DNA of 24,000 bases from Dehalococcoidia bacterium (GTDB lineage: Bacteria > Chloroflexota > Dehalococcoidia > E44-bin15). The notes under the pieces are model-generated. The model made no database searches. It saw nothing but the letters and a program-made list of their open reading frames with translations, and was not told the DNA's origin. Below, piece by piece: positions 6,685 through 24,000 of this stretch. Location of the stretch: contig JAUWRG010000005.1 in assembly GCA_030610655.1 (NCBI GenBank), positions 1 through 24,000 on the forward strand, given 5' to 3'. The position numbers and the translations under genes are program-made. Position 1 is the first letter of the stretch. Every line of letters starts with the position of its first letter.

Positions 6685-6689
6685 GATCT

Positions 6690-7518: not shown

Positions 7519-9111
7519 CTATGCCTTTTCGGCACTCTTCAGCAGCCAGTACTCAAGGCTATCGGCCAGCGCCAGCCAGCTCGCCTCGATAATGTTGGTG
7601 GAGCTACCCACCGTCCGCCACTCATGCTCCCCATCGCTAGATTCAATGAGCACGCGTACCCGCGATTCCGTGCCTGCCGTTTCTTCTATCACGCGAACTT
7701 TGTAGTCAACCAGCCTCACCGCTGCCAATCGAGGATAGAACACTAGAAGCGCCTTGCGTAACGCGGCATCCAGGGCATTCACTGGGCCGTTCCCCTCGGC
7801 GGCAGTGTGAATTATGTCGTTGCCCACTTTCACCTTGACTGTCGCTTCGGATAACAGCTCCTCCTCGTTCTCCAAAGTCGGAGGGCGTCGCCTCTTTTCC
7901 ACCACTACCATGAAATCGACCAGCTCAAACGGTGGACGATAATCAGGCTGAGAACGATGGATAAGCAGTTCAAAGGAGGCCTCAGCACCGTCATACTGGA
8001 AGCCACGGCTCTCCATAAATTTGACCCGTTCCAATATAGCATGTGCCTGTTCACTCTGATGGGTCAGATCTAATCCCGTCTCCCTGGCCTTCCGTATGAT
8101 AACTCCCTTGCCCGACATCTCAGATACCAATGTTCGCCATTCGTTTCCCACCGATTTGGGGTTGACATGGTGATAGCTTTCCTCCCACTTCATCATGGCA
8201 GCGATATGGAGGCCAGCCTTATGGCTGAAGGCACTGGCCCCCACGTAGGGAAGGTGGCTATCAAGGGTCAGATTAGCCACCTCGCTTACAAAATGAGCGG
8301 CTTCAGTCAGCCTGGCAAGCTGCTTGTAGGGGATACAATCAATGCCCATCTTTAGCTTCAGAGCAGGGATGACGGAGCACAGGTTGGCATTTCCACAGCG
8401 CTCCCCGTAGCCGTTAATGGTGCCTTGAACCTGAATTGCTCCCGCCTGGACCGCGGCTAAGGTGTTGGCCACGGCAAGTTCAGCATCGTTATGGGCGTGG
8501 ATACCTAGCTTGGCTTTGGTTGCCTTTCGCGCCGCCTTGACAGCGACAGTCACATCCGCCGGCAATGCCCCTCCATTTGTATCGCACAAGATGACACATT
8601 CAGCGCCCGCCTCAGCAGCAGCATTGACCGTCTTTAGAGCATATTTAGGATTCGATTTGTAGCCATCAAAGAAGTGCTCCGCATCGAAGAAGACCCTTCG
8701 CCCATTTGATATTAGATAGGCTACAGAGTCAGCGATCATGCTGATGTTTCCATCTAAAGTGGTCTCCAGAACTTCGGTTACATGATGGTCCCAACTCTTG
8801 CCTACCAGTGTTATCACACTTGCTCCAGCGTCCAACAGGGCACGAAGTGTGGGGTCTTTTTCAGCTTTTTCATCGGGCCTTCTGGTGCTGCCAAAGGCAA
8901 CGAGTACCGCTTTGGAAAGAGCCAACTCAGAGGCCCTGGCGAAAAACTCCTCGTCTTTAGGGTTTGCCCCTGGCCAGCCCCCCTCGATAAAGTGTATGCC
9001 CAACTCATCAAGCTTTCTCGCAATCTTGAGCTTGTCCTCAACGCTGAAGGATATACCCTCCCGCCCTGCTCCATCGCGTAATGTGGTGTCATAAAGCTGG
9101 ACTCGCTTCAT
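7519..9111 (-). CDS. cimA: (R)-citramalate synthase (LeuA-related family, long form)
   Basis: 530 aa. It has LYDTTLRDGAGREGISFS, HAHNDAELAVANTLAAV and a C-terminal LeuA-allosteric-like domain. It is a paralogue distinct from the leuA at 16758-18275 and is the last gene of the operon. Confidence 0.72.
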   Translation of the reverse strand: MKRVQLYDTTLRDGAGREGISFSVEDKLKIARKLDELGIHFIEGGWPGANPKDEEFFARASELALSKAVLVAFGSTRRPDEKAEKDPTLRALLDAGASVITLVGKSWDHHVTEVLETTLDGNISMIADSVAYLISNGRRVFFDAEHFFDGYKSNPKYALKTVNAAAEAGAECVILCDTNGGALPADVTVAVKAARKATKAKLGIHAHNDAELAVANTLAAVQAGAIQVQGTINGYGERCGNANLCSVIPALKLKMGIDCIPYKQLARLTEAAHFVSEVANLTLDSHLPYVGASAFSHKAGLHIAAMMKWEESYHHVNPKSVGNEWRTLVSEMSGKGVIIRKARETGLDLTHQSEQAHAILERVKFMESRGFQYDGAEASFELLIHRSQPDYRPPFELVDFMVVVEKRRRPPTLENEEELLSEATVKVKVGNDIIHTAAEGNGPVNALDAALRKALLVFYPRLAAVRLVDYKVRVIEETAGTESRVRVLIESSDGEHEWRTVGSSTNIIEASWLALADSLEYWLLKSAEKA

Positions 9112-9140
9112 CGACTAGCTCCTCTTGCTATTCCCGAACA

Positions 9141-10232
9141 TCAGACTATCTGCCCCGCCACTAAATCACCCATCTCTTTGGTGCCTACCTTAGTCTTGCC
9201 TTCGTCCATTATATCATAGGTGCGGTAGCCCTGTTCCAAAACGTCGCTAACCGCCTTTTCCACCGCTTCGGCTTCCTGCACCATCCCCAGTGAATAACGA
9301 AGCATCATAGCAAGTGAGAGTATGGTGGCGATTGGGTTGGCCATGTTCAGCCCTGTCCTGCTCGGGGCGCTGCCATGAATCGGCTCATACATACCAAAGG
9401 TCCGCTCGCCATCCTTAGGTATTCCCGCCAAGCTCGCCGACGGCAACATGCCCATAGAACCAGCGAGCATAGAAGCCTCATCGGTCAGGATGTCGCCGAA
9501 CATGTTCTCAGTTACGATGACATCAAGATCAGCGGGGCGCTGGATTAACCTCATAGCGCAGGCATCGACCAGCATATGTTGTAACTCTACATCGGGATAA
9601 TCTGACGATAGCTCTATAGCGATCTGCCGCCACAACCGCGATGATTCCAGCACATTGGCCTTATCCACTGATGTCAGTTTTTTGCGCCGCGTTCTGGCAA
9701 GCTCAAAGCCAACCCTAAGAATGCGCTCGACCTCCTTTTCGGAGTATACAAGGCTATCGACCGCCTTTCGGCCTGCGGCGGTCTGCCACTGCTTCTTCGG
9801 CTTACCGAAGTAAAGCCCGCCGGTAAGCTCTCGAACTACGATAAGGTCGACACCCTTAACAACAGCCGGCTTCAAGTTGGTGGAATCGACCAGCATGGGG
9901 AGCACCTTCACCGGGCGCAGGTTGGCGAAAAGCTTAAGTTGCTTTCTCAGACCGAGAAGCCCGTCTTCGGGACGTACCTTCGCCCTAGGGTCATCCCACT
10001 TAGGGCCGCCAACCGCTGCCAGGAAAACCGCATCGCTTCTCTTGCACTTGTTGAGCGTCTCTCCAGGGAGGGCTACCCCGAACTCATCTATAGCCACACC
10101 CCCGATAGGGGCATAATCCAGATGGAAAGAATGTCCAAATCTCTTACCCACTGCCTCAAGAACTTTTACCCCTTCGGCAGCGACCTCTGGGCCGACCCCA
10201 TCGCCAGGAAGCACTGCGATATTGAATCTCAC
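9141..10232 (-). CDS. leuB: 3-isopropylmalate dehydrogenase
   Basis: 363 aa. It has [42 protein letters not shown] and EPIHGSAP motifs. Confidence 0.93.
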
Positions 10233-10286
10233 TTAGACCTCCTCGCTTCTTTGTTTGAAAATACTTCTATTCCTTTGCTAGGGTAG

Positions 10287-10353
10287 GTTGGAGCATCCGC
10301 TCCAACAACGCCTAGAGCCGATGTTCTAGGCCTGTCCTGAGCTTGTCGAAGGG
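10287..10353 (-). repeat. Intercistronic repeat/hairpin element between leuD and leuB (same family as 6690-6860)
   Basis: Hairpin 1 is gttggagc (10287-10294) paired with gctccaac (10299-10306). Hairpin 2 is cctaga (10311-10316) paired with tctagg (10325-10330). The minus strand of 10330-10353 reads cccttcgacaagctcaggacaggc (PFDKLRTG), similar to 6753-6777. Confidence 0.55.
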
Positions 10354-10380
10354 CTACCCAGTATTCTCACGTTTCGTTCG

Positions 10381-10878
10381 TCAGCGCTTACCCATGAGGG
10401 CCTTCCTGGTATGCTCGACGAGCCCTCCTGCCGAGATAAGCTCCAGCATGAAATCCGGGTAGGGCTCAGCCGTATATATCTTGTCCCTGGTGATGTCCCT
10501 GATCTCGCCTTTTTCCAGTTCCACCTCAAGCTCATCGCCCTGCTCTATCTCATTGGCCTGGGCGCATTCAAGTAAAGGCAGGCCGATGTTGATGGCATTT
10601 CTGAAGAAGATGCGGGCGAAGCTCCGGGCGATGACGCACGATATGCCCACTGCCTTGATGGCGATGGGGGCGTGCTCCCGCGATGAGCCGCAGCCGAAAT
10701 TGGTGGTGGCCACTATTATGTCACCCGGCTGTACTCGGCTCAAGAACTCGCTATCGATGTCCTCCATGCAATGCGCTGCCAGTTCCTCCGGCTCAGAGAG
10801 GTTCAGATAGCGAGCCGGGATGATGACATCGGTATCCACATTGGCCCCATACTTATGAACTTTGCCTTTAAGCTTCAA
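10381..10878 (-). CDS. leuD: 3-isopropylmalate dehydratase small subunit
   Basis: 165 aa with the aconitase swivel-domain motif [15 protein letters not shown]. The start is TTG, with the RBS aaggggag. Confidence 0.9.
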
Positions 10879-10894
10879 GCTTATATCTCCCCTT

Positions 10895-11446
10895 TCAGAC
10901 CTCCAAGCAACCGAGATAATAGAAGCCTGGAAAATCTGCAGGAATGGTTAAGCTCTTGATATGAAGAGGAGAAAACTTCCTATTAAACCTATTAACTCCA
11001 TCTGTCCAGTCATCCATGCCACCATTTGCCGTGGTTAGAATTAAAAGGAATTTATTGCCTTCTACGATTTCGTTCAATTTTTCAACATCTGGTTTAATCC
11101 CTACCGAGCTTGGGTCCCCAAAATAGAATTGCGCATTATATTTATATCCTTTTTGATACCCTATTAGCCAATGTTTCAATTCGATCCATGCTGTTAATGC
11201 ACCGGACCCCGTTGGCACTTCAACCTTGAAATCAACCTTCCTTTTTCCCACGCCAAATGAGACTTCTCGGTCAAAGTTAGCTAAACTGCCCGCGGCTTTT
11301 TCATCGTCTAACAAGGATAGAAACTCTCCCTTCATCCAGCCTTCCACTTGCACTCCATACTTGCAAAAACAATTTAGATGTTTTTCCCTGGAGTCCAAAA
11401 CCGCTTTAAATCGAGAAACCAAGTCCAAGATAGCGTGATCGGTCAT
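10895..11446 (-). CDS. Orphan PD-(D/E)xK nuclease-fold protein of unknown family
   Basis: 183 aa. The motif order is E ([10 protein letters not shown]), D (RKVDFKVEV), ExK (AWIELKHW), which is the canonical restriction-endonuclease-like core. The gene is AT-richer than its flanks. Its stop lies 16 nt upstream of the leuD start. Confidence 0.55.
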
Positions 11447-11454
11447 TTCTCACC

Positions 11455-11512
11455 TCCCCCAGCCCCGCGAGGCGTCCCAGTATGGCGCTGGCGGCGGCCA
11501 CCAAGCTGCAAA
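11455..11512 (-). repeat. Degenerate copy 3 of the leuC 3' coding end (cassette boundary)
   Basis: On the minus strand it encodes ...[18 protein letters not shown], against the leuC C-terminus [19 protein letters not shown]. By hand alignment, 11473-11498 matches 14400-14425 at 22 of 26 nt. Confidence 0.75.
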
Positions 11513-11537
11513 GTCCTTGTGGGACAAAATGGCTTTT

Positions 11538-11741
11538 TCATTTGAGAATGACAGAGAGCGGTTTTTGTTCCTCTAATGCGCTCACCTTTAGGATGGAAAA
11601 GCCAATGATGTTTCCTTCCTCGTCAACCTTTTCCATTACCGCATCGTTTCCTGTCTCTCTAAAGTAACCTGTTTTTCGCTCAAACATGACTTCAAGATAG
11701 TCTCCTTCTTTGTCGAACCAAACCTTTATTTCCTTTCCCAT
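11538..11741 (-). CDS. DUF2283-family protein (putative antitoxin partner)
   Basis: 67 aa. VWFDKEGDYLEVMF...DEEGNIIGFSILKVS matches the YDxExDxLYI...GxIxGIEI pattern of DUF2283. It overlaps the upstream gene by 16 nt. Confidence 0.7.
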   Translation of the reverse strand: MGKEIKVWFDKEGDYLEVMFERKTGYFRETGNDAVMEKVDEEGNIIGFSILKVSALEEQKPLSVILK

Positions 11742-12040
11742 AGTATTTCGCCTCCCTTTATTGTGTCTGTAAAATACGCCGTAATAATGAACAAATCATC
11801 ATCCAATAATTTAACTACCACACATAGATATTTCTCAGCTATAAGCGTGGCACTGTAATACCGATAAAACAGTTCAACTTGCGGGTCTATTCTAGATCTA
11901 ACAATTATATCAGGATTCAATAAGGTATTCTCTATTTTATCGATCTGCCCGAACATTTCTGGATGGTCAGCCTCAATATGCTCTCGTCTTTCATTTGTTA
12001 ATCGAATTCGGCGGCCATGGATGTCTTTAAACCATTTCAT
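11726..12040 (-). CDS. Putative toxin, DUF4258-like / barnase-RelE-like small nuclease
   Basis: 104 aa. I recognise the pattern (LTNERREHIEADHPEM...NPDIIV...CVVVK...FIITAYFT). The family assignment rests mainly on the pairing with DUF2283. Confidence 0.45.
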   Translation of the reverse strand: MKWFKDIHGRRIRLTNERREHIEADHPEMFGQIDKIENTLLNPDIIVRSRIDPQVELFYRYYSATLIAEKYLCVVVKLLDDDLFIITAYFTDTIKGGEILWERK

Positions 12041-12043
12041 TTA

Positions 12044-12097
12044 TCTCTCCGCCTCCTCCTCCGGCCCCCCCCGATCCGCCCCAAGATGGCGCTGGCC
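12044..12097 (-). repeat. Degenerate copy 2 of the leuC 3' coding end (cassette boundary)
   Basis: On the minus strand it encodes (M)[17 protein letters not shown], against leu[19 protein letters not shown]. 12067-12095 matches 14391-14419 at 23 of 29 nt. The GGAGG-rich tail doubles as the RBS of the next gene. Confidence 0.75.
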
Positions 12098-12101
12098 ATA
12101 A

Positions 12102-12323
12102 CTATAACAATTTCTCGAAATCTTCTGGAGAGAGTCCTGCTTGCCTCAGGATGTTACTAAGTGTGCCAAGCGGTATTATTCTACGACCATGAAAAGGGAC
12201 AACAACTCGCCTTCCCTCCTTGATATAGGAGCGATGACCCCCTTTAGCATGTGAAAACTGAAATCCTACTCTTAATAATGCGCTCTCCATCTCCCGAGCT
12301 GCGACTCTGGGCAGCCTTTTCAT
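12102..12323 (-). CDS. hicA: HicA-family mRNA interferase toxin
   Basis: 73 aa. It shows the YcfA/HicA pattern (LLRVGFQFSHAKGGHRSYIK...VVVPFHG). An ATGA overlap couples it to the upstream hicB. Confidence 0.8.
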   Translation of the reverse strand: MKRLPRVAAREMESALLRVGFQFSHAKGGHRSYIKEGRRVVVPFHGRRIIPLGTLSNILRQAGLSPEDFEKLL

Positions 12324-12562
12324 AGAGCTATGCCCACCTTCTCTAAAGAAGGAGGCATGTCCTCAGGTATAGGCTCATTGTGAATTTTTAGGTCCTCCAA
12401 GTAGCAAAGGATAGCCTCCTTAATGTTCTCTAATGCTTCTTCCTTAGTAGCTCCATAGCTGAAACACCCAGGGAGTGCGGGAACAGAAGCATTATAATAA
12501 CCCTCGAACTCTGGATCGGTTTCCTGCTCCAAGACAACAGTATAGCTATATTCTTTGACCAT
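12320..12562 (-). CDS. hicB: HicB-family antitoxin (UPF0150, short form without a DNA-binding domain)
   Basis: 80 aa. YTVVLEQE...GYYNASVPALPGCFSYGATKEEALENIKEAI is typical of the HicB N-terminal domain. Confidence 0.8.
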   Translation of the reverse strand: MVKEYSYTVVLEQETDPEFEGYYNASVPALPGCFSYGATKEEALENIKEAILCYLEDLKIHNEPIPEDMPPSLEKVGIAL

Positions 12563-12604
12563 AACACCTCCCCTTTATATCTATATCATATATCTCCTCA
12601 TGAA

Positions 12605-12665
12605 CCACTTCCTCCGCCCCAATATTGCGCTGCCAGCGATCACCTGCTCTGTGAGGTAGACACTT
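12605..12665 (-). repeat. Degenerate copy 1 of the leuC 3' coding end (cassette boundary)
   Basis: On the minus strand it encodes SVYLTEQVIAGSAILGRRKW, against leu[22 protein letters not shown]. The 16-nt core ccccaatattgcgctg (12617-12632) is identical to 14402-14417, and aggtagac (12654-12661) equals 14442-14449, with a 3-nt indel between the two blocks. Confidence 0.75.
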
Positions 12666-12680
12666 GGTTGAGGCTGTCCT

Positions 12681-14282: not shown

Positions 14283-14362
14283 AGCCTCCCCTTTCTCTCC
14301 ATTCCCCCACAGAGTTCCTTAAGCAGTGGCATATCAAATCTTCCCTGCACGACGCAATACTT

Positions 14363-15634
14363 TCAACCCTCACGTACTACTCCTTCTGGACTACCAATCC
14401 TCCCCAATATTGCGCTGGCGGCGGCAACTGCTGGATTTGCCAGGTAGACTTCTGACTGAGGACTGCCCATGCGGCCAACGAAGTTGCGGTTGGTGGTTGA
14501 GATGCATCTTTCACCCGCTGCGAGGACCCCCATATGTCCACCGAGGCAGGGACCACAAGTGGGCGTGCTCACCGCTGCCCCCGCCCGGATGAAGGTTTCG
14601 ATCAGGCCGCGGCGCATAGCCTCCAGATACACCTCTTGAGAGCCAGGGATGATGATCAAGCGCACCTCAGGGTGAACCTTTCTCCATTTAAGCACCTCGG
14701 CGGCCATCTCCAGGTCCTCGATGCGGCCGTTGGTGCAACTGCCGATCACCACCTGGTCGATCTTCACCTCACCAACCTCGGTTATGGGCCTGGTATTCGA
14801 TGGCAGGTGGGGAAAGGCAACCTGAGGCTCGATCTTGGAGACATCATATTCGATGACTTTTTCATAATAGGCATCTTCATCGGGTTCGTACACCGTGTAG
14901 GGACGCCCGGCACGAGCCTGAATATAAGCCAATGTCTTCTTATCGACCCTAAAGATGCCTGCCTTGGCGCCAGCCTCGATAGCCATGTTTGCCATAGTGA
15001 AGCGACTACTCATAGGCAGAGACTCGATGGCCTCTCCGCAAAGCTCCATTGCGGCATACAGTGCTCCGTCGACGCCGATGTCGCCGATAGTATAAAGAAT
15101 AAGGTCTTTGCCGCTGACCCACTTTTTCGTCCTGCCGTGATAGATGAACTTGATAGTAGGAGGAACTTTCATCCAAGTCTCGCCTGTTGCCATGGCGCAG
15201 GCGATATCGGTCGAGCCCATTCCTGTGGCGAAGGCTCCCAGAGCGCCATAGGTGCAGGTATGGGAATCAGCAGCCACGACCACATCGCCAGGTAACACCA
15301 GCCCCTGCTCCGGCAGAAGCACATGCTCGATGCCGCCTCTACCTACCTCAAAGTAGACCAATCCCTGCTCCCTGGCGAACTCCTTCATCATCTTCGCCTG
15401 CTCCGCTGAGGGGATGTCCTTATTAGGGACAAAATGATCGGCGACCATCACCACCCTCTGGGGGTCAAAGACTTCAGAGACACCGATACGCTCAAACTCG
15501 TTGATGGCGATGGGGGCGGTAACATCATTTGCCATAACGAGGTCAACCCTGACATTTAGGAACTCGCCAGGGCTGACCTTCTTTTTCCCACAATGAGCAG
15601 CAAGTATCTTCTCAGCTATCGTTGATCCTGTCAC
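14363..15634 (-). CDS. leuC: 3-isopropylmalate dehydratase large subunit
   Basis: 423 aa of the aconitase family ([30 protein letters not shown]). The GTG start overlaps the mgtC stop (gtga). The C-terminus is ...[20 protein letters not shown]. Confidence 0.92.
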
Positions 15635-16061: not shown

Positions 16062-16460
16062 CTAGGCTATGGCCTTCTTGAGTTTCCTCAAGTTCCTCAG
16101 GTGTTCATCCTTGTGGCCCGGTTCAAGGAAGGTTAGCTTCTCGCAGGACTCGAACTCATCGCACTGGGCGCAGCTTTCATAGCCCCGTTTCCGGGCGCAG
16201 GTCCTGATTTTGCACCAAGGGTTGCCACCACCCTCGCGGCATCCCTTGCATCTGAGGCTAGCAAGGGCATCAAGGCTCCTCTTAAAAGAGTCATAGTCTC
16301 CCAGGAAGGGAATCGAGGGCCATACCTGCTTTATTTTCTCGGCCCGCATCGTCCGCCGCAACCCCTTGGCCGCCTCGCTTATCGTCTTGGTGTACCCAAA
16401 GCACTGGCTGCAATCAAGGCCGCAATAGGCCATAACGCTACCGGTTTTTATTTCCGCCAT
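16062..16460 (-). CDS. DUF3795-family cysteine-rich protein
   Basis: 132 aa with YCGLDCSQC near the N-terminus plus CKGC, WCKIRTC and CAQC clusters, which matches the DUF3795 pattern. Confidence 0.6.
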   Translation of the reverse strand: MAEIKTGSVMAYCGLDCSQCFGYTKTISEAAKGLRRTMRAEKIKQVWPSIPFLGDYDSFKRSLDALASLRCKGCREGGGNPWCKIRTCARKRGYESCAQCDEFESCEKLTFLEPGHKDEHLRNLRKLKKAIA

Positions 16461-16500
16461 TTTTTCTTCTCTATGTTACTCCGAAAATAGATTTATGAGG

Positions 16501-16591
16501 GCTGAGGGAGTCCTCTCCCTCAGCTTTTCCGTGAAGGAAGGATTCCTTCACGCCTCAGACTATTTTCATGATTCGTTGGTGGGCTGCCGCC
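16501..16591 (-). repeat. Intercistronic repeat element with two tandem perfect hairpins
   Basis: Hairpin A is ctgagggag (16502-16510) paired with ctccctcag (16515-16523). Hairpin B is gtgaaggaa (16531-16539) paired with ttccttcac (16543-16551). catgattcgttggtgggc (16568-16585) is the exact reverse complement of 6701-6718. The element is flanked by tatgagg at 16494-16500 and 16592-16598. Confidence 0.6.
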
Positions 16592-16613: not shown

Positions 16614-16748
16614 CTAGATGATAAGCACCACCAGGACCAATATCAAGGCGATGAAGCTGATACTCAAGCTCATTATGATCAACACCAGCAGCAACTTGCC
16701 AGTGCGCTCCATGCCAGTAAGCCGCTGCTCAATCTTCTCCTCGTCCAT
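16614..16748 (-). CDS. Small single-pass membrane protein (44 aa, below the ORF-track cutoff)
   Basis: The minus-strand ATG at 16748 lies 7 nt downstream of the leuA stop codon, with the RBS aggggg. It translates to MDEEKIEQRLTGMERTGKLLLVLIIMSLSISFIALILVLVVLII, a charged head followed by one clean TM helix. Confidence 0.4.
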   Translation of the reverse strand: MDEEKIEQRLTGMERTGKLLLVLIIMSLSISFIALILVLVVLII

Positions 16749-16757
16749 TCAAACCCC

Positions 16758-18275
16758 CTACTCTTTGCCTTTCGCCGCCAAGAGCCGGTTGAGGGCGTTC
16801 ATATAGGCTTTGGCGCTGGCGACCAGGATGTCAGTGGATGCACCCCGACCAATGTAGGTTCGGCCCTCGCTCTCGATCTTTATGGTCACCTCGCCGATGG
16901 CATCGATACCCTCGGTAATCGATTTGACGCTGAACTCAGTGAGTGTATTGGGCACCTGCACCAAGCGGTTGATCGCTTTGTAGACGGCGTCCACTGGTCC
17001 CGCTCCCAGGGCGGCATCAGCGATAACCTGCCCATCGGGAGCAACGAGCTTGACCGTGGCCGTAGACACGGTGTGATCGCCACAGGAAACCTGCACCTGC
17101 TCCAGGTGGTAGGTCTCCGACACGGTGCGCAACTCCTCGGCAACTAGGGCCTCCAAGTCAGGATCGGTGACTTCCTTCTTCTTATCGGCCAGCTCCTTGA
17201 AAGCGGCGAAGGCGCGGGCAAAATCCTCTTCGCTAAGAGTGCAACCCAGTTCCTCCAGTTTCTGGCGAAATGCATGACGCCCCGAGGTCTTCCCTAATAC
17301 GATCCTGCTTTCGCCGACCCCGATGCTCTTAGGAGTCATAATTTCGTAGGTGGTTCTCTCCTTGAGCATACCATCTTGGTGCAAGCCCGAAGCATGAGCG
17401 AAGGCATTGGCCCCCACAATCGCCTTATTGGGCGGCACCTCCATGCCCATATAGTGGCTCACCAGTCGACTAGTCCTATAGATCTGGGCGGTGTCAACCT
17501 TGGTAGCCAGGTGGAAGAAATCGCTACGGGTTTTGAGAGCCATCACGATCTCTTCTAGGGCAGCATTGCCGGCTCGCTCACCCACACCGTTGATAGTGCA
17601 TTCCACCTGGCGCGCTCCGCACTGGATAGCACGCAGCGAATTGGCCACCGCCTGACCCAGATCATCGTGGCAGTGTACAGATAGGGTGACCTTCTCAATC
17701 CCGGGCACATTGTTGCGTACATACTCAATTAAGGCACCGAATTCGTCGGGTTGGACATAGCCCACGGTGTCGGGAATATTAACCACGGTGGCTCCGGCTT
17801 CTATCGTCGCCGCCAGCACCTGGCAAAGGTAATCCCAGTCGCTGCGAGTAGCATCCATCGCTGAGAACTCGACCGCACTACAATAACGCTTAGCATACCT
17901 CACCGCCTCAACAGCTAACTCGAGTGCCTGTTCACGGCTGATGTGCAACTGGTGTTCGAGGTGAATATCGGAGGTGGACAGGACAACATGGAGAAGGGGA
18001 GCCTCTGCCTCCTTTAGTGCATTCCATGTTGAGTCGATCTGCTCCTGCTTTATGCCGGAGAGCGCCGCAATCTGGCAGTCCCGCAGTTCCCGCGCCAGAA
18101 GCTGCACCGCAGCAAAGTCCCCCGGTGAGGTGTGGGGAAAACCAGCCTCGATGATATCCACCCCCAACCTCTGGAGCTGATGACCGATCTCGTGCTTCTC
18201 TTCAAGGGTCAATGCTCCCCCAGCAGCCTGCTCTCCGTCTCTCAGTGTGGTGTCGAAGATAATCACACGTTCCAT
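16758..18275 (-). CDS. leuA: 2-isopropylmalate synthase
   Basis: 505 aa. It has IFDTTLRDGEQ, HCHDDLGQAVANSLRAI and a C-terminal LeuA regulatory domain. Confidence 0.9.
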   Translation of the reverse strand: MERVIIFDTTLRDGEQAAGGALTLEEKHEIGHQLQRLGVDIIEAGFPHTSPGDFAAVQLLARELRDCQIAALSGIKQEQIDSTWNALKEAEAPLLHVVLSTSDIHLEHQLHISREQALELAVEAVRYAKRYCSAVEFSAMDATRSDWDYLCQVLAATIEAGATVVNIPDTVGYVQPDEFGALIEYVRNNVPGIEKVTLSVHCHDDLGQAVANSLRAIQCGARQVECTINGVGERAGNAALEEIVMALKTRSDFFHLATKVDTAQIYRTSRLVSHYMGMEVPPNKAIVGANAFAHASGLHQDGMLKERTTYEIMTPKSIGVGESRIVLGKTSGRHAFRQKLEELGCTLSEEDFARAFAAFKELADKKKEVTDPDLEALVAEELRTVSETYHLEQVQVSCGDHTVSTATVKLVAPDGQVIADAALGAGPVDAVYKAINRLVQVPNTLTEFSVKSITEGIDAIGEVTIKIESEGRTYIGRGASTDILVASAKAYMNALNRLLAAKGKE

Positions 18276-18667
18276 TTTTCGCCCTCCTGGCGGTCGGGTG
18301 TTGCCCCCTCAATAAGACTAAGGAGCTCACCCACTGCTTTCCTTATGTCCTCGGCGTAAATGTTAATCTCCTCCATACTCAGTCCAGCCTCATAGAAGTT
18401 ACTACGTAAATAACTGGCATGTCCATAGGCATCGAAGATGCTTTTGTTTCCAAGCTCCTTTGCTAGCTCTTTGGCAAATTCTGTAATTTCCCAGTGCGCT
18501 GCAAGCTTTATACCTCTGCTCGCAGCCACTGCTTTCAACGCCTCAGCCATGCTTCCCCAGAGGAACTCTCCTGCCTTCTCAGGGTCGCCTGCTTCTACGT
18601 AATTGAAGGCATTATCCAGATAGTGAATGCTTTGGGCTTTATACTTCTCAGCGCTCTCGTTTGTCAC
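18263..18667 (-). CDS. PaREP1-like (HEPN-superfamily-like) helical protein
   Basis: 134 aa. AEKYKAQSIHYLDNAFNYVEAGDPEKAGEFLWGSMAEALKAVAASRGIKLAAHWEI matches the PaREP1 pattern (EKxWGAxAxAxKAxAxxxGxxLxSH) and contains R-x6-H. An ATGA overlap couples it to the upstream 76-aa ORF. Its last 13 nt overlap the leuA start. Confidence 0.5.
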   Translation of the reverse strand: MTNESAEKYKAQSIHYLDNAFNYVEAGDPEKAGEFLWGSMAEALKAVAASRGIKLAAHWEITEFAKELAKELGNKSIFDAYGHASYLRSNFYEAGLSMEEINIYAEDIRKAVGELLSLIEGATPDRQEGEKWNV

Positions 18668-18894
18668 CGTGTTACATACTCCAAAATGGCCTCTGTGTTT
18701 GCGTCTATTTTTACTTGGGCTATCTTAGTTTCGAACAATCCGACATCGATTTCCACGAGCCAAACATCACCCTCCCTGACAACCTTAATCGGCCTCAAAG
18801 TGAAAAGTGTCGGAGAGAAATACTTGCAAAGATAGGACCGAGCTATCTCGGTAGCTTCTTCGGCGGATTTTACTTCTGCTGGCATATTTCCCAC
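18664..18894 (-). CDS. Small hypothetical protein, partner of the PaREP1-like gene
   Basis: 76 aa from the GTG at 18894. The ATG at 18885 (MPAEVK..., 73 aa) is better placed behind the RBS aggagg. I recognised no family. Confidence 0.5.
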   Translation of the reverse strand: MGNMPAEVKSAEEATEIARSYLCKYFSPTLFTLRPIKVVREGDVWLVEIDVGLFETKIAQVKIDANTEAILEYVTR

Positions 18895-18915
18895 CTCCTA
18901 TTAAAGCATTCTACT

Positions 18916-18958
18916 TCAAGCCTTCAGCCAGGGCATCATCTCCCTGAGCCCTTTGCCC
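18916..18958 (-). repeat. Relic copy of the ilvC 3' coding end
   Basis: On the minus strand it encodes [13 protein letters not shown]-stop, against the ilvC end [13 protein letters not shown]-stop. 18916-18958 aligns with 19233-19275 at a constant offset of 317 nt and 36 of 43 identities. This includes an identical 24-nt core (18926-18949 = 19243-19266) and aligned stop codons. Confidence 0.8.
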
Positions 18959-18972
18959 CTTAATTTCACCCT

Positions 18973-19236
18973 TCAGTGTCTTCCATATTTAAGCTTTGCG
19001 TATAGAAGCATGGCGACAAAGGTCGCCCCCACCGCATTCCACAGGATGACAGGGAACAACTGGAATACTATCCCACAGCCTAACCAGCAAAGCACACCAG
19101 TAAGGAGTAAAAGGGTAAATGGCAGGCTTATCTCACGGGCGCTCTTAAGCCTGAATAGCTTGACCACCTGTGGCACATAGGCCACTGTCACCAATGCTCC
19201 TCCGATAAAGCCAAAGCGAATACCCTTCCTCATCAC
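18973..19236 (-). CDS. SemiSWEET / PQ-loop family small transporter
   Basis: 87 aa with three hydrophobic helices and the PQ-loop motif [18 protein letters not shown]. The start is GTG at 19236 or ATG at 19233, and either overlaps the ilvC stop (gtgatg). Confidence 0.72.
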
Positions 19237-20225
19237 TTCTTGAGCCAGGGCATCATCTCCCTGAGCTTCTTGCCCACCTCCTCAATCTCATGCGCCGCTT
19301 CTCTTCGCCGGTAGGCGTTGAAGCTGGGGCGGCCCGCCTGGTTCTCCAGAATCCACTCACGGGCGAAGGTGCCGTCCTGAATCTCTGACAGGATCTGCTC
19401 CATCTCTTCCCTCACAAACGCATCAATGACCCTCGGCCCCCTGGAGTAATCACCGTATTCCGCAGTATCGCTCACCGAATAGCGCATATAGGCAAAACCA
19501 CCCTGGTATATGAGGTCAACGATGAGCTTTAGCTCATGGCACACCTCGAAATAGGCGATCTCAGGCTGATACCCAGCCTCTACCAGGGTTTCAAAAGCCG
19601 TCTTTATCAGGGAAGTGATGCCGCCGCAGAGCACCACCTGCTCCCCGAAGAGGTCAGTCTCGGTCTCCTCCTCGAAGGTAGTCTCCAGAACTCCTGCTCT
19701 GGTGCAGCCGATACCCTTTGCATAGGCCAGGGCCTTTTCCTTAGCCTTGCCCGAAGCGTCCTGATGCACGGCGACAAGCGCCGGAGCGCAAGAGCCCTCG
19801 GTATAAAGTTGGCGCAGCATATGGCCAGGGCACTTAGGCGCTATCATGGTCACATCAATATCAGGCGGTGGCAGTATCTGATTGTAGTGGATGTTGAATC
19901 CGTGAGCAAACATCAGCATATTACCCTTAGTGAGCCCCTTCTCAATAGAGCTATAGTATACCTGGCGGTGGAGCTGGTCTGGGACAAGCATCACGATAAC
20001 ATCGGAGGCCTTCGCCACCTCATCGGCGGTCATCACCTTAAGCCCAGCCTCGACGGCTGCCGCCCAGGGCTCGCTACCCTCAAGCTCGCCAACCATGACC
20101 TGGCAGCCGCTCTCCTTCAGGTTCAAGGCATGGGCATGCCCCTGGCTACCGAAGCCGATTATGCCGATGGTCTTGCCCTCGAGTAAACTTATGTCCACGT
20201 CACTATCATAATAGATCTTAGCCAT
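19233..20225 (-). CDS. ilvC: Ketol-acid reductoisomerase (class I)
   Basis: 330 aa with the Rossmann motif [19 protein letters not shown] and collinear KARI motifs ([20 protein letters not shown]). Confidence 0.95.
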
Positions 20226-20240
20226 AGCTCTCTCCTTCGA

Positions 20241-20915
20241 TTATTTGCCGATTTTCCCTTTTGCCAACAAGGCTTCTGGGTTATAAAGGTCTTTATTGCC
20301 CGCATTAAACTCGTGCTTGACCTGCACAAGGAGCTTATCAAGAGTGTATATCTCCCAAGCTAGGGGAACAAATGCCATCCCCCCTTTTCTAATTTCTTGG
20401 GCAAGTTGAAAGCTCACTACAAGATGATAAGCATTAGCTGTTATTTTAGGATCGAGGGAAGGGGAGAAATAGAAACTTCTGAAAGTTGTTTCTTTTACCT
20501 CTATATTATAAGTTTTGCAATCTAGATATACTATTCGCCCCTCATCGTCAATTTTGATGTCTGGATAGCCTACTGCCTTTCTCTTTCCGTTTTTTGTTTC
20601 GGGTTTCTCTGCCCTTAATCCAACTTCATTAAGAGCCTCGATAACAAAGGGCTCTATGCGGTTCCCCGCTTCGTTTGGCCTCCTTGCAAATATACCCTCT
20701 ATGTATGCGCTCTCACCAGCTATTTGTGCAGCCCTTATGAGTTTCTTAAGAAGCTCTTCAGTCTCTGGCGCTTCTTTATCAAAAGCAATGACTTCATAGC
20801 CTGTTAGCGCCTTTATTGCAATTGGGAATGGTATGCCTTTTATTGGCTCGAGAAACTTAGCAATTGTTGTCTCTAGGCTCTTGATGTAGTCTTCATTTTC
20901 CACTTTCGTAGCCAC
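20241..20915 (-). CDS. Type II restriction endonuclease candidate (PD-(D/E)xK)
   Basis: 224 aa. GYPDIKIDDEGRIVYLDCKTY gives PD...D-x-K with normal spacing. It is the last gene of an AT-rich three-gene unit with a DNA methyltransferase. The start is GTG and overlaps the 72-aa ORF by 23 nt. Confidence 0.65.
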   Translation of the reverse strand: MATKVENEDYIKSLETTIAKFLEPIKGIPFPIAIKALTGYEVIAFDKEAPETEELLKKLIRAAQIAGESAYIEGIFARRPNEAGNRIEPFVIEALNEVGLRAEKPETKNGKRKAVGYPDIKIDDEGRIVYLDCKTYNIEVKETTFRSFYFSPSLDPKITANAYHLVVSFQLAQEIRKGGMAFVPLAWEIYTLDKLLVQVKHEFNAGNKDLYNPEALLAKGKIGK

Positions 20916-21111
20916 CCTTGGTCAACTTTTCAATAAGGCCATTTATAGCATCTTCGCTCTCCCGAATTAGAGAACTCAAAAGGCTACATCGCTCGGATAT
21001 GTCTTTAGGAAGATATTTGTCTGGGAAAGTTTGAAGCAGTTCGCCAGTCTCTAGGTCACATAGGTTTACCCAACCATCTTCAACTCTCAGTATATGACCT
21101 TCTAATTTCAT
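20893..21111 (-). CDS. Small hypothetical protein bridging the methyltransferase and endonuclease genes
   Basis: 72 aa. It fills the gap between the M and R genes and overlaps both (32 nt and 23 nt). I saw no recognisable HTH, so it is not an obvious C-protein. Confidence 0.45.
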   Translation of the reverse strand: MKLEGHILRVEDGWVNLCDLETGELLQTFPDKYLPKDISERCSLLSSLIRESEDAINGLIEKLTKGGYESGK

Positions 21112-22366
21112 TATTCGCTCCTTTCTGGAAAATCAGGATATTTTCCCTTCGCATTACGTTGTAAAGCCCGAAGATAATCTTGTCGATGTTCCTAACAAGG
21201 TGGAAGCCTAGCTTTTGGCAATGGTCAATAGTGAATCCAACAGTGTCTAACTCTTCACCGTAAAGTGTGGCATTTCCTATTACAATAACGCAAAATTTCC
21301 TTGGTTTAAGCACACGGTGCATCTCTTTAAGACTTTCTCTCAAGTCTTCATTATACAATCGAACTTTGGTTGAGCCCGTTCCGCGAACACCTATAAATTT
21401 CTCCCTCAATTCTGGTAGATCGTAACCTAGTGCCTTCAAAGCATGAGCATCATTTGAAATATAGTCCAAAGCGATGGAGTATGGGGGGGAGGTTATGATC
21501 CCGTCAACGCTTTTGTCTCCGATAGTCAACTGCCTTGCGTCACCGAGTTTGATGTCGACCCTTCCCAAATCAAGGTTAAGCTTTTGTGAAACGTCTTGGT
21601 AGTCCTTGATAGAAGCGAGCATAAGCTCACTATTCTTCAGAAAAGAGCCAAAAAACTCCTTCCTTCTTCTAGCTTTGTCGCTGTGCGCTATAAGTTCGGC
21701 CATTTTATAGAAGTTCCTGACTTTTTCATTAGGGATAGAATCAATCGTCTCGGAAAGATTGTAACCTTCAGGGTTAAACAAGCCGGGACGCATTTTGTTA
21801 AATACATCCTCTTTACACCCTTCTATTTCTTGAATAGCTTCTATTGCCTCTGTTTTAACCCTGCTCTGCAAAACACAAAGTGGAGAGACCTCTATTCCTA
21901 TGCAATTGATGCCCAGAAGCTGAGCCTCTACCGCAGCAGTCCCACTGCCTATGAATGGGTCAAGCATTGTATCACCCTTCTTGAGACCTATGATATTCAA
22001 AAGAGCCCTTATCATCTGAGGGTGGAACTTGCCTTTGTAGGGATATATCCAATGGGTCAAGTATTGATTCACAGAGCGAGTCCTGTTCTCTTGAATAAGG
22101 TTAAAGTAGTCGGTATAGTAAGCGTTCACCACCCTGAAATAGGCAAGCCTCTTTATTAACGTATCAACATCAGGTGCGTCCAGAAGTTTGAATTCCCGCA
22201 AGCTATTGGTGATCTCACATTTTGCACCAAGAGCCTCCAACTCGAACTGAGCCAATGCTAATTCATAAATGAATTGGACATTGTTTAGCAGCACAAGTTG
22301 AGAGCTATCGCTAGGGACGCTTTTCTCATAGGCCCACAAGGTTTTTTGTTCCTTGATTTTCGCCAT
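21080..22366 (-). CDS. DNA methyltransferase (amino-methyltransferase, SPPY motif: N4-cytosine or N6-adenine)
   Basis: 428 aa. Motif I is LDPFIGSGTAAVEAQLLG and motif IV is DGIITSPPYSIALDY about 150 aa downstream. The RBS aaggag overlaps the ilvN stop codon. Confidence 0.8.
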   Translation of the reverse strand: MAKIKEQKTLWAYEKSVPSDSSQLVLLNNVQFIYELALAQFELEALGAKCEITNSLREFKLLDAPDVDTLIKRLAYFRVVNAYYTDYFNLIQENRTRSVNQYLTHWIYPYKGKFHPQMIRALLNIIGLKKGDTMLDPFIGSGTAAVEAQLLGINCIGIEVSPLCVLQSRVKTEAIEAIQEIEGCKEDVFNKMRPGLFNPEGYNLSETIDSIPNEKVRNFYKMAELIAHSDKARRRKEFFGSFLKNSELMLASIKDYQDVSQKLNLDLGRVDIKLGDARQLTIGDKSVDGIITSPPYSIALDYISNDAHALKALGYDLPELREKFIGVRGTGSTKVRLYNEDLRESLKEMHRVLKPRKFCVIVIGNATLYGEELDTVGFTIDHCQKLGFHLVRNIDKIIFGLYNVMRRENILIFQKGANNEIRRSYTES

Positions 22367-22374
22367 TAAGCTCC

Positions 22375-22935
22375 TTATAAATTAGATATTTCTTCAGCGC
22401 CTTTGACCCTTTTGGGGCGGGCTCTCTTGGGCTTCTCCTCCACCACAATGGGACCCCCTGCTCCCCTCGCCATGGCTATTCTCCCGGTGCGGGCGACCTC
22501 CCGGATACCAAAGCCCTTAAGCAAGCGAAACAGGGAATCGACTTTATCCTCATCTCCAGTGACCTCGACCATCATAGAATCGGAGGCAACATCCACGATG
22601 TTTGCCCTGAAGATGTCCACAATTTGCAGGATCTCGCTCCTTGTGGCTGAGGTGCTCTTCACCTTGAATAAGGCAAGCTCCCGAGCCACTAGACCGTCTT
22701 CGGTGATGTCGGTAACCTTGACCACATCGATGAGTTTATCGAGCTGCTTTCTGACCTGCTCCACTGAGGTAGCAGTGCCATCAACTACGATGGTCATCCT
22801 CGATAGCCCCGGAGTCTCGCTATGCCCCACGGCGATGCTCTCGATATTAAAACCCCTTCTACGGAAAAGGCTAGCTACCCGGTTCAACACTCCAGGTCTG
22901 TCTTCCACTAATGCTATTAGGCTGTGCTTGGCCAT
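22375..22935 (-). CDS. ilvN: Acetolactate synthase small (regulatory) subunit
   Basis: 186 aa with the ACT domain LIALVEDRPGVLNRVASLFRRRGFNIESIAVG and an AHAS small-subunit C-terminal domain. The start overlaps the ilvB stop (taatg). Confidence 0.92.
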   Translation of the reverse strand: MAKHSLIALVEDRPGVLNRVASLFRRRGFNIESIAVGHSETPGLSRMTIVVDGTATSVEQVRKQLDKLIDVVKVTDITEDGLVARELALFKVKSTSATRSEILQIVDIFRANIVDVASDSMMVEVTGDEDKVDSLFRLLKGFGIREVARTGRIAMARGAGGPIVVEEKPKRARPKRVKGAEEISNL

Positions 22936-24000
22936 TATACTACCCTAGCCTCCTTCCTAGGCTCCTCCAGGATCTCGTGAATGGCAGCGCCCGGGGGCAC
23001 CATAGGGTAAACGTTCTCCTCAGGCTCGACCTGAAAGTCGATGAGGAATGGACCCTGGTGTTCCATAGCCGTCTCAATAGCGCTGGTCACCATCACCTTA
23101 TCTGTCACCCTCAAGCCGGCAATTCCGTAGGCATCGGCGACCTTGACGAAGTCGGGGCCGCTGAGAGGGGTGGCAACATAGCGACGCTCATAGAAAAGTT
23201 CCTGCCACTGCCTTACCATACCCAGGAAGCGGTTATTGATAATCGCTATCTTCACCGCCAATTTCTCCTGCTCTATAGTAGCAAGCTCCTGTATAGTCAT
23301 CTGAAATCCGCCGTCGCCAGCGATACACCACACGGTTTCCTCGGGACACGCCACCTTAGCCCCCATGGCTGCAGGGAGTTCAAAACCCATTGGTCCCAGG
23401 CCACCGGAGGAAATCCAGGTATTGGGCCTATTATATTCGAAGTATTGGGCGGCCCACATCTGATTCTGCCCCACACCACTGACAATGATGGCATCACCTT
23501 TGGTGACCTCGTATATCTGGCGCACCACATACTGAGGTATGAGATCATCCGTCTCCCTGATCACCGTTGAAGGGTGGTCACGCCGCCACTCATCGAGTTG
23601 GGAGACCCACTCCACATGGTTTTTGGGAGTGATGTCTCTATTAAGCACCTGTAAAACTGCCCCCACATCGCCCACTATGGGTACATCTACCTTCACATTC
23701 TTCCCAATCTCCGCTGGGTCAACGTCGATATGAATGACCTTGGCGTGAGCGGCAAAGCTTGATACCTTTGCCGTAGCTCGGTCATCGAACCTCATCCCAA
23801 TGGCGATAATGAGATCGGCGGCGTTTACCGCCATGTTAGCATATGCCATACCATGCATCCCCAACATACCAAGGCTTAGGATGTGCGATTCGGGGAAGGA
23901 ACCAATTCCAAGGAGGGTGGTAATCACCGGTATTTGAGCCTTCTCCGCTAGCTCCTTGAGATGAGCGGAGGCCCTAGAGATCAGCACTCCCCTGCCAGCG
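22935..24000 (-). CDS. ilvB: Acetolactate synthase large subunit (partial; the N-terminus lies beyond the window)
   Basis: The frame is open to the window edge. It carries the ThDP-binding region GGLGPMGFELPAAMGAK...IAGDGGFQMTIQELAT...NNRFLGMVRQWQ. Confidence 0.92.
   Translation of the reverse strand, partial: AGRGVLISRASAHLKELAEKAQIPVITTLLGIGSFPESHILSLGMLGMHGMAYANMAVNAADLIIAIGMRFDDRATAKVSSFAAHAKVIHIDVDPAEIGKNVKVDVPIVGDVGAVLQVLNRDITPKNHVEWVSQLDEWRRDHPSTVIRETDDLIPQYVVRQIYEVTKGDAIIVSGVGQNQMWAAQYFEYNRPNTWISSGGLGPMGFELPAAMGAKVACPEETVWCIAGDGGFQMTIQELATIEQEKLAVKIAIINNRFLGMVRQWQELFYERRYVATPLSGPDFVKVADAYGIAGLRVTDKVMVTSAIETAMEHQGPFLIDFQVEPEENVYPMVPPGAAIHEILEEPRKEARVV

Follow-up and report, generated by a model that had tools for sequence, protein, structure and literature searches.

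We have described here the organization of the branched-chain amino-acid operon ilv-leu-cimA in a 24,000-nucleotide stretch of DNA (hereafter the window) from Dehalococcoidia bacterium contig JAUWRG010000005.1, whose nearest genomes are those of uncultured Dehalococcoidales. The operon occupies the minus strand, is read from position 24000 to position 7519, and has restriction-modification (R-M), toxin-antitoxin (TA), and other accessory genes lying between its core genes. We think it probable that the core-gene junctions of this operon in the Dehalococcoidales are recurrent insertion points for small promoter-less modules, which stack at gene 3' ends, the chief insertion junctions being leuC-leuD, leuA-leuC, and ilvC-leuA. 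The anatomy of the locus, the decayed copies of core-gene ends (relics) between the modules, the composition of the inserts, and their presence or absence in relatives can all be observed directly, the last in a survey of 80 Chloroflexota loci with one genome per species.

Gene-end relics between the inserted modules

The largest direct-repeat families of the region (D1-D3) are copies of core-gene 3' ends. Decayed leuC 3' ends are found in three long gaps of the leuC-leuD array, after the PEPCK-like gene, hicA, and the DUF2283 gene (g1, g2, and g3 in Table 1); the duplicated segment is the terminal ~100 nt of leuC, and the relics are ~40-100 nt long. A 16-nt leuC-copy motif, CAGCGCMATMYTGGGR, has four occurrences, all on the operon strand, with none expected, and the ilvC relic behind the PQ-loop gene includes a 23-nt exact repeat (0 expected), with a Smith-Waterman z of 15.6 and a tblastn E of 8e-6. 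Each relic ends in a GGAGG-type Shine-Dalgarno sequence ahead of the next gene. The conserved ...PEE(V) codons of LeuC supply this sequence, which serves leuD in compact operons. Direct repeats of more than 30 bp accordingly flank the inserts, formed by the ilvC end and its relic and by the leuC end and g1-g3. The leuC copies have the 16-nt motif in common, but the relic extents differ, and the motif is also the most conserved part of the LeuC C-terminus. As far as the sequence allows, the relics indicate that modules were inserted one after another at the ends of core genes, with a long target duplication that hands on the Shine-Dalgarno sequence. A preliminary description of this DNA had recognized the inserts themselves and missed this main mechanistic clue, the leuC and ilvC 3'-end relics between the modules.

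Relics also occur in other genomes. A clade-wide Smith-Waterman scan recovered them in 6 of 184 sense tests versus 0 of 184 antisense controls, and a search at the peptide level turned up a further one, from leuA, in L002. In L080 an acetyl-CoA synthetase (acs) gene, newly inserted beside leuC, is followed by a 62-nt leuC relic of 98% identity. The polarity of stacking is clearest at ilvC, where the genome-unique PQ-loop gene adjoins ilvC and the old resident s76-PaREP1 lies behind the relic; in relatives such as L087, L019, and L042, which are only ~75% identical, ilvC is followed directly by an s76-family gene and PaREP1. For the PEPCK and TA modules there is no closely related genome with the site empty.

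From these observations we infer a recombination route, an order of events, and co-transcription. The upstream core gene would receive a module at its 3' end and have its terminal 50-100 nt duplicated, including the Shine-Dalgarno sequence that formerly served the next gene. The newcomer would then adjoin the core gene, and the old gene end would stay as a non-coding relic before the displaced older module, which would keep a ribosome-binding site because the relic with its Shine-Dalgarno sequence precedes it. Repetition would build the order leuC - PEPCK - relic - hicBA - relic - DUF4258/DUF2283 - relic - nuclease - leuD, and the same process at ilvC would give ilvC - PQ-loop - relic - s76/PaREP1 - leuA. 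The route would be illegitimate or homology-facilitated illegitimate recombination, not integrase action. Transcription of the modules would most likely be by read-through from the operon promoter, and their translation would start from Shine-Dalgarno sequences of their own. Only co-oriented, terminator-free insertions would be expected to persist, because polar ones would shut down the leu genes behind them.

Direct repeats of a gene 3' end between modules would also be expected if the leuC and ilvC 3' ends were att sites at which tyrosine-recombinase islets accreted in tandem and then decayed, as in the ssrA islands of Dehalococcoides, and tandem islands with gene 3'-end repeats are indeed known in the same bacterial class (PMC3146451). 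In L080 (15101-15411), moreover, directly after the leuC relic comes part of a tyrosine recombinase, a C-terminal fragment of 62 aa (PF00589, 1e-13), both being situated between acs and older cargo. We nevertheless regard this explanation as unlikely: neither the window nor the operon of any of the other 79 loci has an integrase, the relics vary from ~40 to 100 nt with no fixed core, one unit is a 317-bp single-gene insertion, and at the R-M insert the repeat is merely the size of a Shine-Dalgarno sequence. Of the 80 metagenome loci that carry the nearest relatives of the L080 fragment, none adjoins ilv or leu genes, which leaves a leuC-targeting integrase family unsupported. None of the 15 extra open reading frames (ORFs) of the window yielded an integrase or transposase domain, nor is a tRNA or tmRNA present as an att site.

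Layout of the locus

The minus strand carries an uninterrupted run of 23 ORFs, eight core genes and 15 extra ORFs (14 of at least 67 aa and one of 44 aa), and the core order ilvB-ilvN-ilvC-leuA-leuC-leuD-leuB-cimA is collinear and intact as judged by NCBIfam equivalogs, with ilvB truncated by the window end (the complete gene, read in L081, encodes 563 aa). All 15 extra ORFs are on the operon strand; taken as ~10 independent modules, their uniform orientation has p ~0.001 if orientation is random. The core order, the count and strand of the extra ORFs, and the annotation of the latter, which Pfam and PADLOC matches bear out, are as the preliminary description gave them. The overlaps that it listed are also right, namely TAATG at ilvB/ilvN, GTGA at ilvC/PQ-loop, s76/PaREP1, and MgtC/leuC, ATGA at hicB/hicA, and 13 nt at PaREP1/leuA. 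Its portrayal of the junctions as uniformly very short or overlapping must be tempered, however, as seven intergenic gaps measure 297, 148, 118, 91, 80, 78, and 61 nt, and the inserts are not at almost every junction, as it had said, but at four of seven (ilvN-ilvC, ilvC-leuA, leuA-leuC, and leuC-leuD); ilvB-ilvN, leuD-leuB, and leuB-cimA are without an ORF.

The layout is real and not an assembly artefact, because six independent assemblies agree: the same junctions recur at 99.9-100% identity, ENA contig ERZ4220937 NODE_149 being identical and the five others coming from different samples, and a chimera can thus be ruled out. Strain-level decay of hicA was also rejected, as the uncalled hicA in L082 has an identical sequence and all seven single-nucleotide differences are in leuA. 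The source contig has 25 co-oriented genes with their upstream start at a DHO-dehydrogenase-like gene and ilvD, beside a divergent MarR gene. At the other end cimA is convergent with a plus-strand nitroreductase gene, part of an opposite-strand block at 213-7505.

Table 1. Features of the ilv-leu-cimA run in the window, in the direction of reading (positions in the window)
Feature	Position	Strand	Evidence and remarks
ilvB, acetolactate synthase large subunit	22935..24000	-	NF004710/TIGR00118, E 1e-139 or better; 5' part outside window
ilvN, acetolactate synthase small subunit	22375..22935	-	1-nt overlap with ilvB stop (TAATG)
Type II DNA methyltransferase (N6_N4 MTase, SPPY motif)	21080..22366	-	PF01555 1.5e-18; PADLOC MTase_II 3e-35; GC3 0.47
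72-aa ORF between methyltransferase and endonuclease genes	20893..21111	-	ORF call; without family; overlaps both neighbours
MjaV-family Type II restriction endonuclease, 220-224 aa	20241..20915	-	PADLOC REase_II 2.1e-31; PF27324; GC3 0.39
ilvC, ketol-acid reductoisomerase	19233..20225	-	NF004017, 543 bits
PQ-loop (SemiSWEET-like) membrane protein, 87 aa	18973..19236	-	PF04193 2.9e-9
ilvC 3'-end relic, after PQ-loop gene	18909..18958	-	80% identity over 50 nt; 31 nt upstream of s76
s76, 76-aa ORF, upstream partner of PaREP1	18664..18894	-	homologues at same junction; 4-nt overlap with PaREP1
PaREP1-family protein	18263..18667	-	PF05942 1.3e-12; 13-nt overlap with leuA start
leuA, 2-isopropylmalate synthase	16758..18275	-	NF002086, 766 bits
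44-aa single-pass membrane peptide ORF	16614..16748	-	own Shine-Dalgarno; called in L081-L083; 45-aa ORF in L001
63-nt double-hairpin element in 297-nt leuA-DUF3795 gap	16497..16559	-	fold -45 kcal/mol, z = -6.6
DUF3795 protein, Cys-rich	16062..16460	-	Pfam 5e-17; GC3 0.71
MgtC-family membrane protein	15631..16038	-	Pfam 7.6e-38
leuC, 3-isopropylmalate dehydratase large subunit	14363..15634	-	TIGR02083, 695 bits
PEPCK-like protein, 533 aa	12681..14282	-	PF01293 9e-39; NF006821 366 bits vs cut-off 369
leuC 3'-end relic g1 (QPSVYLTEQVIAGSAILGRR...)	12594..12680	-	starts directly after PEPCK stop; also in L001
hicB-hicA toxin-antitoxin pair	12102..12562	-	HicB_lk_antitox 8.8e-11; HicA_toxin 2.9e-16; ATGA overlap
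leuC 3'-end relic g2	12056..12094	-	carries GGAGGAGGAGG Shine-Dalgarno for following gene
PBECR2/DUF4258 (104 aa) + DUF2283 (67 aa), TA-like pair	11538..12040	-	Pfam; GC3 0.34, 0.46; 16-nt overlap
leuC 3'-end relic g3	11452..11501	-	continues into start of nuclease gene
183-aa protein, uncharacterised family, predicted PD-(D/E)xK nuclease fold	10895..11446	-	AF2 pLDDT 94.5
leuD, isopropylmalate dehydratase small subunit	10381..10878	-	TIGR02084/TIGR02087
Non-coding leuD-leuB gap, 148 nt, dispersed REP/MITE-like repeat	10233..10380	-	partial copies in L032, L064
leuB, 3-isopropylmalate dehydrogenase	9141..10232	-	TIGR00169, 498 bits
cimA, citramalate synthase, final gene of array	7519..9111	-	TIGR00977, 725 bits

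Occupancy and turnover in related genomes

Junctions were called occupied when longer than 300 nt and were counted among the related Dehalococcoidales loci of the survey. By this measure 25 of 30 loci have an occupied leuC-leuD junction (spacers from -10 to 5119 nt), and leuA-leuC is occupied in 30 of 41 (mostly by MgtC) and ilvC-leuA in 11 of 41; the counts are 2 of 36 for ilvB-ilvN, 2 of 29 for leuD-leuB, and 2 of 32 for leuB-cimA, and 0 of 37 for ilvN-ilvC, where every spacer is 191 nt or less. In distant Chloroflexota the operon is compact. The cargo of the clade is very diverse and mostly of singleton families: defence and TA genes elsewhere include ThaI R-M, DpnII-like and Mrr-like restriction endonucleases, DarT-Macro, HicAB, and an MNT nucleotidyltransferase, and other cargo includes many GNATs, methyltransferases, RidA, EVE, GIY-YIG, and acetyl-CoA synthetase. 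Inserted ORFs of at least 100 aa are co-oriented with the operon in 91 cases versus 12 opposite, and several of those 12 are antisense to operon-strand genes and look like artefacts. High turnover of unrelated genes at fixed spots between core genes is the pattern of a hotspot, and it is the pattern found here.

In three distant Chloroflexota loci (L026, L029, and L071) a second, divergent leuB-like gene lies in tandem upstream of leuB and makes the sole occupied junction. In four Dehalococcoidia loci (L014, L043, L052, and L067) the operon is split after leuC or MgtC, with unrelated genes and no leuD or leuB within 8-10 kb; we considered integrase-bearing islands after leuC there and ruled them out, as the operon is split and ordinary genes follow.

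The closest comparison is with a sister genome (L001), in which LeuA is 92% identical and the nucleotide sequence ~88-90% identical. Collinearity of the two is interrupted at four junctions, each break lying exactly between two genes. L001 is without the 2.1-kb R-M insert and has an ilvN-ilvC spacer of 10 nt; its ilvC-leuA content differs; one 137-aa ORF stands between PEPCK and leuD in place of the five genes of the window (hicBA, DUF4258/DUF2283, and the nuclease); and a different Type II R-M system (17993-20299; a 478-aa N6_N4 methyltransferase and a 276-aa RE_TdeIII) occupies leuB-cimA, where the window has a spacer of 29 nt. The latter insertion replaces the terminal leuB codons, and the methyltransferase start overlaps the new leuB stop. 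Common to both are the 44-aa ORF, DUF3795 (disrupted in L001), MgtC, and PEPCK, and 11 of the 15 extra ORFs have no counterpart in L001.

Composition fits this division. The GC content at third codon positions (GC3) is 0.59-0.71 in the core genes, DUF3795, and MgtC, 0.47-0.57 in s76, PaREP1, PQ-loop, and PEPCK, and 0.34-0.47 in the R-M system, the TA pairs, and the nuclease. The idea that the inserts are foreign to the core thus holds in large part, on the low GC3 of the R-M, TA, and nuclease genes and the 11 of 15 missing from L001. Conservation of the interleaving among relatives, which the preliminary description had named as a point against its own reading, does hold for a part of the cargo: MgtC lies at leuA-leuC in at least 26 related loci, s76-PaREP1 at ilvC-leuA in at least seven lineages, and DUF3795, PEPCK, and the 44-aa ORF are shared with the sister species. 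On these comparisons there are three apparent age classes, the first of lineage-conserved guests (MgtC, DUF3795, the 44-aa peptide, and the PEPCK-like gene), the second of patchy old residents (s76-PaREP1 and the MjaV-type R-M system), which occupy the same junctions in other lineages, and the third of recent low-GC3 imports (the PQ-loop gene, HicBA, the DUF4258/DUF2283 pair, and the PD-(D/E)xK-like nuclease).

The survey bears on the proposal of the preliminary description that cargo and operon depend on each other, the selfish defence and TA genes being stabilised since downstream leu expression requires transcription through them. Co-orientation, overlaps, and the lack of strong terminators would fit such an addiction by polarity, as would the long residence suggested by R-M at ilvN-ilvC in three lineages and by s76-PaREP1 at ilvC-leuA in at least seven. 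Clean deletion, however, restores the ancestral junction at no cost to the operon, and ilvN-ilvC is empty in 37 of 37 related loci; genomes ~10% apart in nucleotide sequence differ at four junctions, which argues that the inserts are not stable, and much of the clade's cargo is not selfish (GNATs, RidA, acs, methyltransferases, and MgtC). This account also seems unlikely to us, and the claim of mutual stabilisation is better replaced by a one-sided dependence: because empty junctions are common and clean (10 nt at ilvN-ilvC in L001) and turnover is fast, the inserts would need the operon and not the reverse. Any persistence of the R-M and TA modules would find a simpler explanation in the addictive nature of these modules themselves.

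One could also suppose that the extra genes are functional partners of branched-chain amino-acid synthesis, kept for co-regulation. MgtC is conserved at leuA-leuC in at least 26 loci, DUF3795 and the 44-aa peptide have core-like GC3, DUF3795, PEPCK, and the 44-aa peptide are common to the sister species, and RidA, a known pathway helper, is present at leuC-leuD of L002. We find this account very improbable, given that R-M, HicAB, DarT, HEPN, and nuclease genes have no pathway link, that the content is highly variable and mostly of singleton families, and that GC3 is low.

The individual modules

The insert at ilvN-ilvC is 2.1 kb long and has adjacent methyltransferase and endonuclease genes of matching families, which on sequence identifies a putative Type II R-M system. 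The methyltransferase gene comes first and is served by the AAGGAG Shine-Dalgarno sequence that stands before ilvC in L001, and the insert is flanked by two AAGGAG copies only (a 6-7 bp repeat). The same pairing is found in L087, L090, L092, L093, and L094, and the middle gene varies among homologous R-M loci and is missing in L087. MjaV-type R-M is also at ilvN-ilvC in L087-L089 (69-70%), and in L095 (78%) it is followed by ilvC. Elsewhere the family lies in L090 between a nitroreductase gene and a RarA/MgsA-family ATPase gene. In L092 (1258-3192) a co-oriented MjaV-type R-M system (endonuclease 64% identical) lies between argB and argD-argG-argH, so that a second biosynthetic operon, for arginine, hosts this R-M family. 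A PDB-chain sequence search with the 224-aa endonuclease gave no match. The MAKI... start common to the methyltransferase and IlvC was considered as a recombination scar and is treated as chance, as the wobble codons differ and methyltransferase homologues start otherwise. Avoidance of GTAC is uninformative as a sign of R-M residence, the observed/expected ratio being 0.52 in the window, 0.72 in the R-M-free sister, and 0.31-0.44 in other relatives. Other 4-bp palindromes are strongly depleted in L087 (observed/expected CTAG 0.03, GGCC 0.18, and GATC 0.22) and in L019 (GATC 0.07 and GGCC 0.14), which points to strong restriction pressure in these bacteria.

At ilvC-leuA, the PQ-loop gene has no counterpart in any of the 80 relatives. 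Homologues of s76 that are 41-54% identical lie at the same junction in L009, L019, L030, L042, L069, and L087, a longer member of the family has a weak PepSY match, and s76-PaREP1 is at ilvC-leuA in at least seven lineages; PaREP1 has been assigned to the HEPN-T clade (PMC3710099). The adjoining leuA is a mosaic allele: in residues 50-200 it has no more than 42-56% identity with L018 and L047, whose ilvC and leuC are 84-91% identical, and in L002 the 5' part of leuA is 90-100% identical to the window and leuC, leuD, and leuB only ~78-80%. The mosaic pattern suggests allelic replacement beside this junction, and fits frequent recombination in hotspot flanks (cf. PMC5635113). A sliding comparison of identity with L001 showed no clear recombination break in ilvC or leuC beside the inserts.

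Of the guests at leuA-leuC, MgtC is present in 26 related loci with 53-93% identity, and is a long-standing operon member in this order. DUF3795 is a subclade-conserved guest, found at the same junction in L001, L033, L047, and L053 (67-76% identity). The double-hairpin element between leuA and DUF3795 folds far better than shuffled sequence and has no U-tract behind its hairpins. It behaves like a small mobile repeat, because DUF3795 of L001 is disrupted by a second copy lying inside it (11908-11970). The element may serve as a partial terminator or a stabiliser, or be a mobile mini-repeat.

At leuC-leuD, the PEPCK-like gene is common only to the window and L001 (91% identity). The hicB and hicA genes overlap, and both Pfam domains score above the gathering threshold, as expected of a HicAB pair; the proteins are 85% and 82% identical to those of a pair at leuC-leuD in L073 with unrelated flanks, and a shared mobile unit was ruled out, as homology with L073 ends at the coding region. 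The 183-aa protein has no Pfam, PADLOC, or PDB sequence match. The best fold matches of its predicted structure are R.SwaI, Cas4, and the SPARDA nuclease, and within its family E61, D72, and K91 are invariant and E89 nearly so; a homologue follows leuC in L060.

The leuD-leuB junction, 1-5 nt in most relatives, is in the window a gap with a REP/MITE-like repeat, of which L032 (370-427) and L064 (16757-16780) have partial copies. Another dispersed repeat lies at 6681-6900 on the plus strand, upstream of the nitroreductase gene, with copies in the leuD-leuB gap of L073 (14752-14833). The 274-aa nitroreductase ORF has a long N-terminal extension, probably an artefact produced where the reading frame runs through this repeat. 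Also on the plus strand (2797-3084), a 95-aa ORF matches the isochorismatase domain over its C-terminal half only (profile 96-173 of 175) and is probably a gene fragment between ClpC-like and RadA-like genes.

Expression of the inserted genes

Almost all genes of the run are preceded by a Shine-Dalgarno sequence of their own; for the PQ-loop gene there is no clear one. A promoter-like site is present at the upstream start of the co-oriented run, at the DHO-dehydrogenase-like gene and ilvD beside MarR. Terminator-like matches are below the shuffle expectation (11 versus 14.8), and promoter-like matches are slightly above expectation (23 versus 15.2), several of them in low-GC inserts. Rfam yielded no riboswitch, T-box, or leader: the window has no match that reaches the gathering score, and the 20.6-kb source locus none even with E allowed up to 1. 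The co-orientation, the overlaps, and the lack of a terminator excess plausibly find their simplest reading in read-through from the operon promoter. The preliminary description had seen no convincing promoters or terminators between the genes; terminators are indeed not in excess, but two promoter-like sites with 10 of 12 matches and the very stable double hairpin qualify that statement.

The slight excess of promoter-like matches might be taken to mean that nothing special occurs at this operon, and that in gene-dense genomes with long co-directional strings whatever insertion survives would resemble the colonisation of an operon, the modules having promoters of their own; the same R-M family does occur in other co-oriented strings (L092 at argB-argD, and L090). 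We think this quite unlikely, as occupancy is very uneven (25 of 30 at leuC-leuD versus 0 of 37 at ilvN-ilvC), the relics show that the same site was used repeatedly, many junctions, with start/stop overlaps of 1-32 nt, are too tight for promoters, and opposite-strand genes do occur nearby (MarR, and the plus-strand block).

Several observations weigh against our preferred reading of serial insertion of promoter-less modules with read-through expression. Read-through is itself something that we infer from the sequence. The operon strand has two sigma-70-like sites with 10 of 12 matches, one at 20267-20240, so near ilvC that its transcript would lose the Shine-Dalgarno sequence, and one at 16646-16618, within the 297-nt gap after leuA; the low-GC R-M DNA holds several weaker promoter-like sites, making internal promoters possible, and the double hairpin in the 297-nt gap could split the operon. 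Relics are detectable in a minority of junctions (the 6 of 184 tests), and at the R-M insert the repeat is that of 6-7 bp alone. The PEPCK-like gene and g1 are also in L001 and the modules behind them are not, so that a strict order with the newest next to the core fails there; because of this misfit, either replacement between g1 and leuD or insertion at relic copies must be added. The R-M and hicBA genes have diverged from their same-junction counterparts (69-85% amino acid identity) about as much as core genes have, and because of this core-like divergence vertical descent with many losses is inseparable from transfer. Finally, the ilvC-leuA content of L001 is incompletely known because of a run of N there.

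If our reading is correct, an essential amino-acid operon tolerates repeated insertions across an order and may attract them, contrary to textbook expectation. The operon would keep working because the duplicated end with its Shine-Dalgarno sequence gives both the newcomer and the displaced gene a ribosome-binding site. The system offers a model of how promoter-poor, streamlined genomes could gain and test accessory genes, defence included, without mobile-element machinery, and expression of the R-M and TA genes may follow branched-chain amino-acid regulation. For annotators, gene-end relics provide a marker for finding such arrays and ordering their insertions.

Relation to known systems

We found no paper that describes this operon as an insertion hotspot, although its features have parallels in several known systems. 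New genes rarely integrate within operons and prefer their edges (PMC5635113), and the location of these inserts is thus unusual, as had been noted from the start. Core-flanked transfer hotspots (PMC5635113) resemble the arrays in rapid turnover, in that many are without recognisable mobile elements, and in recombination of their flanks, for which the mosaic leuA is the counterpart here, but here several hotspots lie inside one operon.

Islands at ssrA in Dehalococcoides are tandem and each is bounded by a direct repeat of the gene 3' end (PMC3146451). They share with the arrays the bacterial class, tandem inserts behind one essential gene, and 3'-end repeats, but the islands are kilobases long, carry a serine-recombinase module and a fixed 20-bp repeat, and do not lie inside an operon that needs downstream expression. 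No site-specific recombinase is present in the window, and a single truncated one is in L080.

Integron arrays are similar in having promoter-less cassettes of one orientation, an upstream promoter, and the newest cassette proximal. The differences are that there is no IntI, attI, or attC here and that the repeats are gene-end relics; the window has no integrase and no shared inverted repeats at module ends. A more far-reaching proposal is that the Dehalococcoidales have a dedicated, integron-like capture process without a resident integrase, for which Shine-Dalgarno-bearing 3' ends, above all that of leuC, would be reusable docking sites, where promoter-less defence, TA, transport, and metabolic cassettes would pile up and be driven by the housekeeping promoter. 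We consider this doubtful, although if true it would couple accessory-gene expression to amino-acid supply.

Two parallels match the proposed mechanism. One is insertion with long target duplication, where mobile-element genes are absent and the repeats often extend across a start or stop site; one Type II R-M case within an operon-like cluster has been mentioned (PMC2853133). As in those insertions (Nobusato, Furuta, and Kobayashi; PMC2853133), we see no transposase or integrase, target repeats of more than 30 bp, an intact target gene, and a low-GC insert. That process was defined on R-M systems, whereas here the clear duplications flank the PQ-loop, PEPCK-like, and TA genes; R and M genes inside the long-duplication inserts, on which the original screen relied (PMC2853133), are not what we find, and the events here follow one another at a single site within an essential biosynthetic operon. 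Sequential displacement through homology-facilitated illegitimate recombination was proposed for type VI secretion system effector-immunity arrays of Vibrio cholerae and for Rhs arrays (PMC5361080). These have in common with the present arrays a constant upstream anchor, a newcomer at the anchor 3' end, orphaned 3' fragments downstream, and no integrase, but in our case the anchor is a housekeeping enzyme gene, the fragments are short non-coding relics, and the cargo is unrelated to the anchor. Hotspots between core genes, long target duplication, and displacement arrays are thus all known parts; what is new is their combination inside an essential biosynthetic operon, order-wide, with relics that would pass on a ribosome-binding site.

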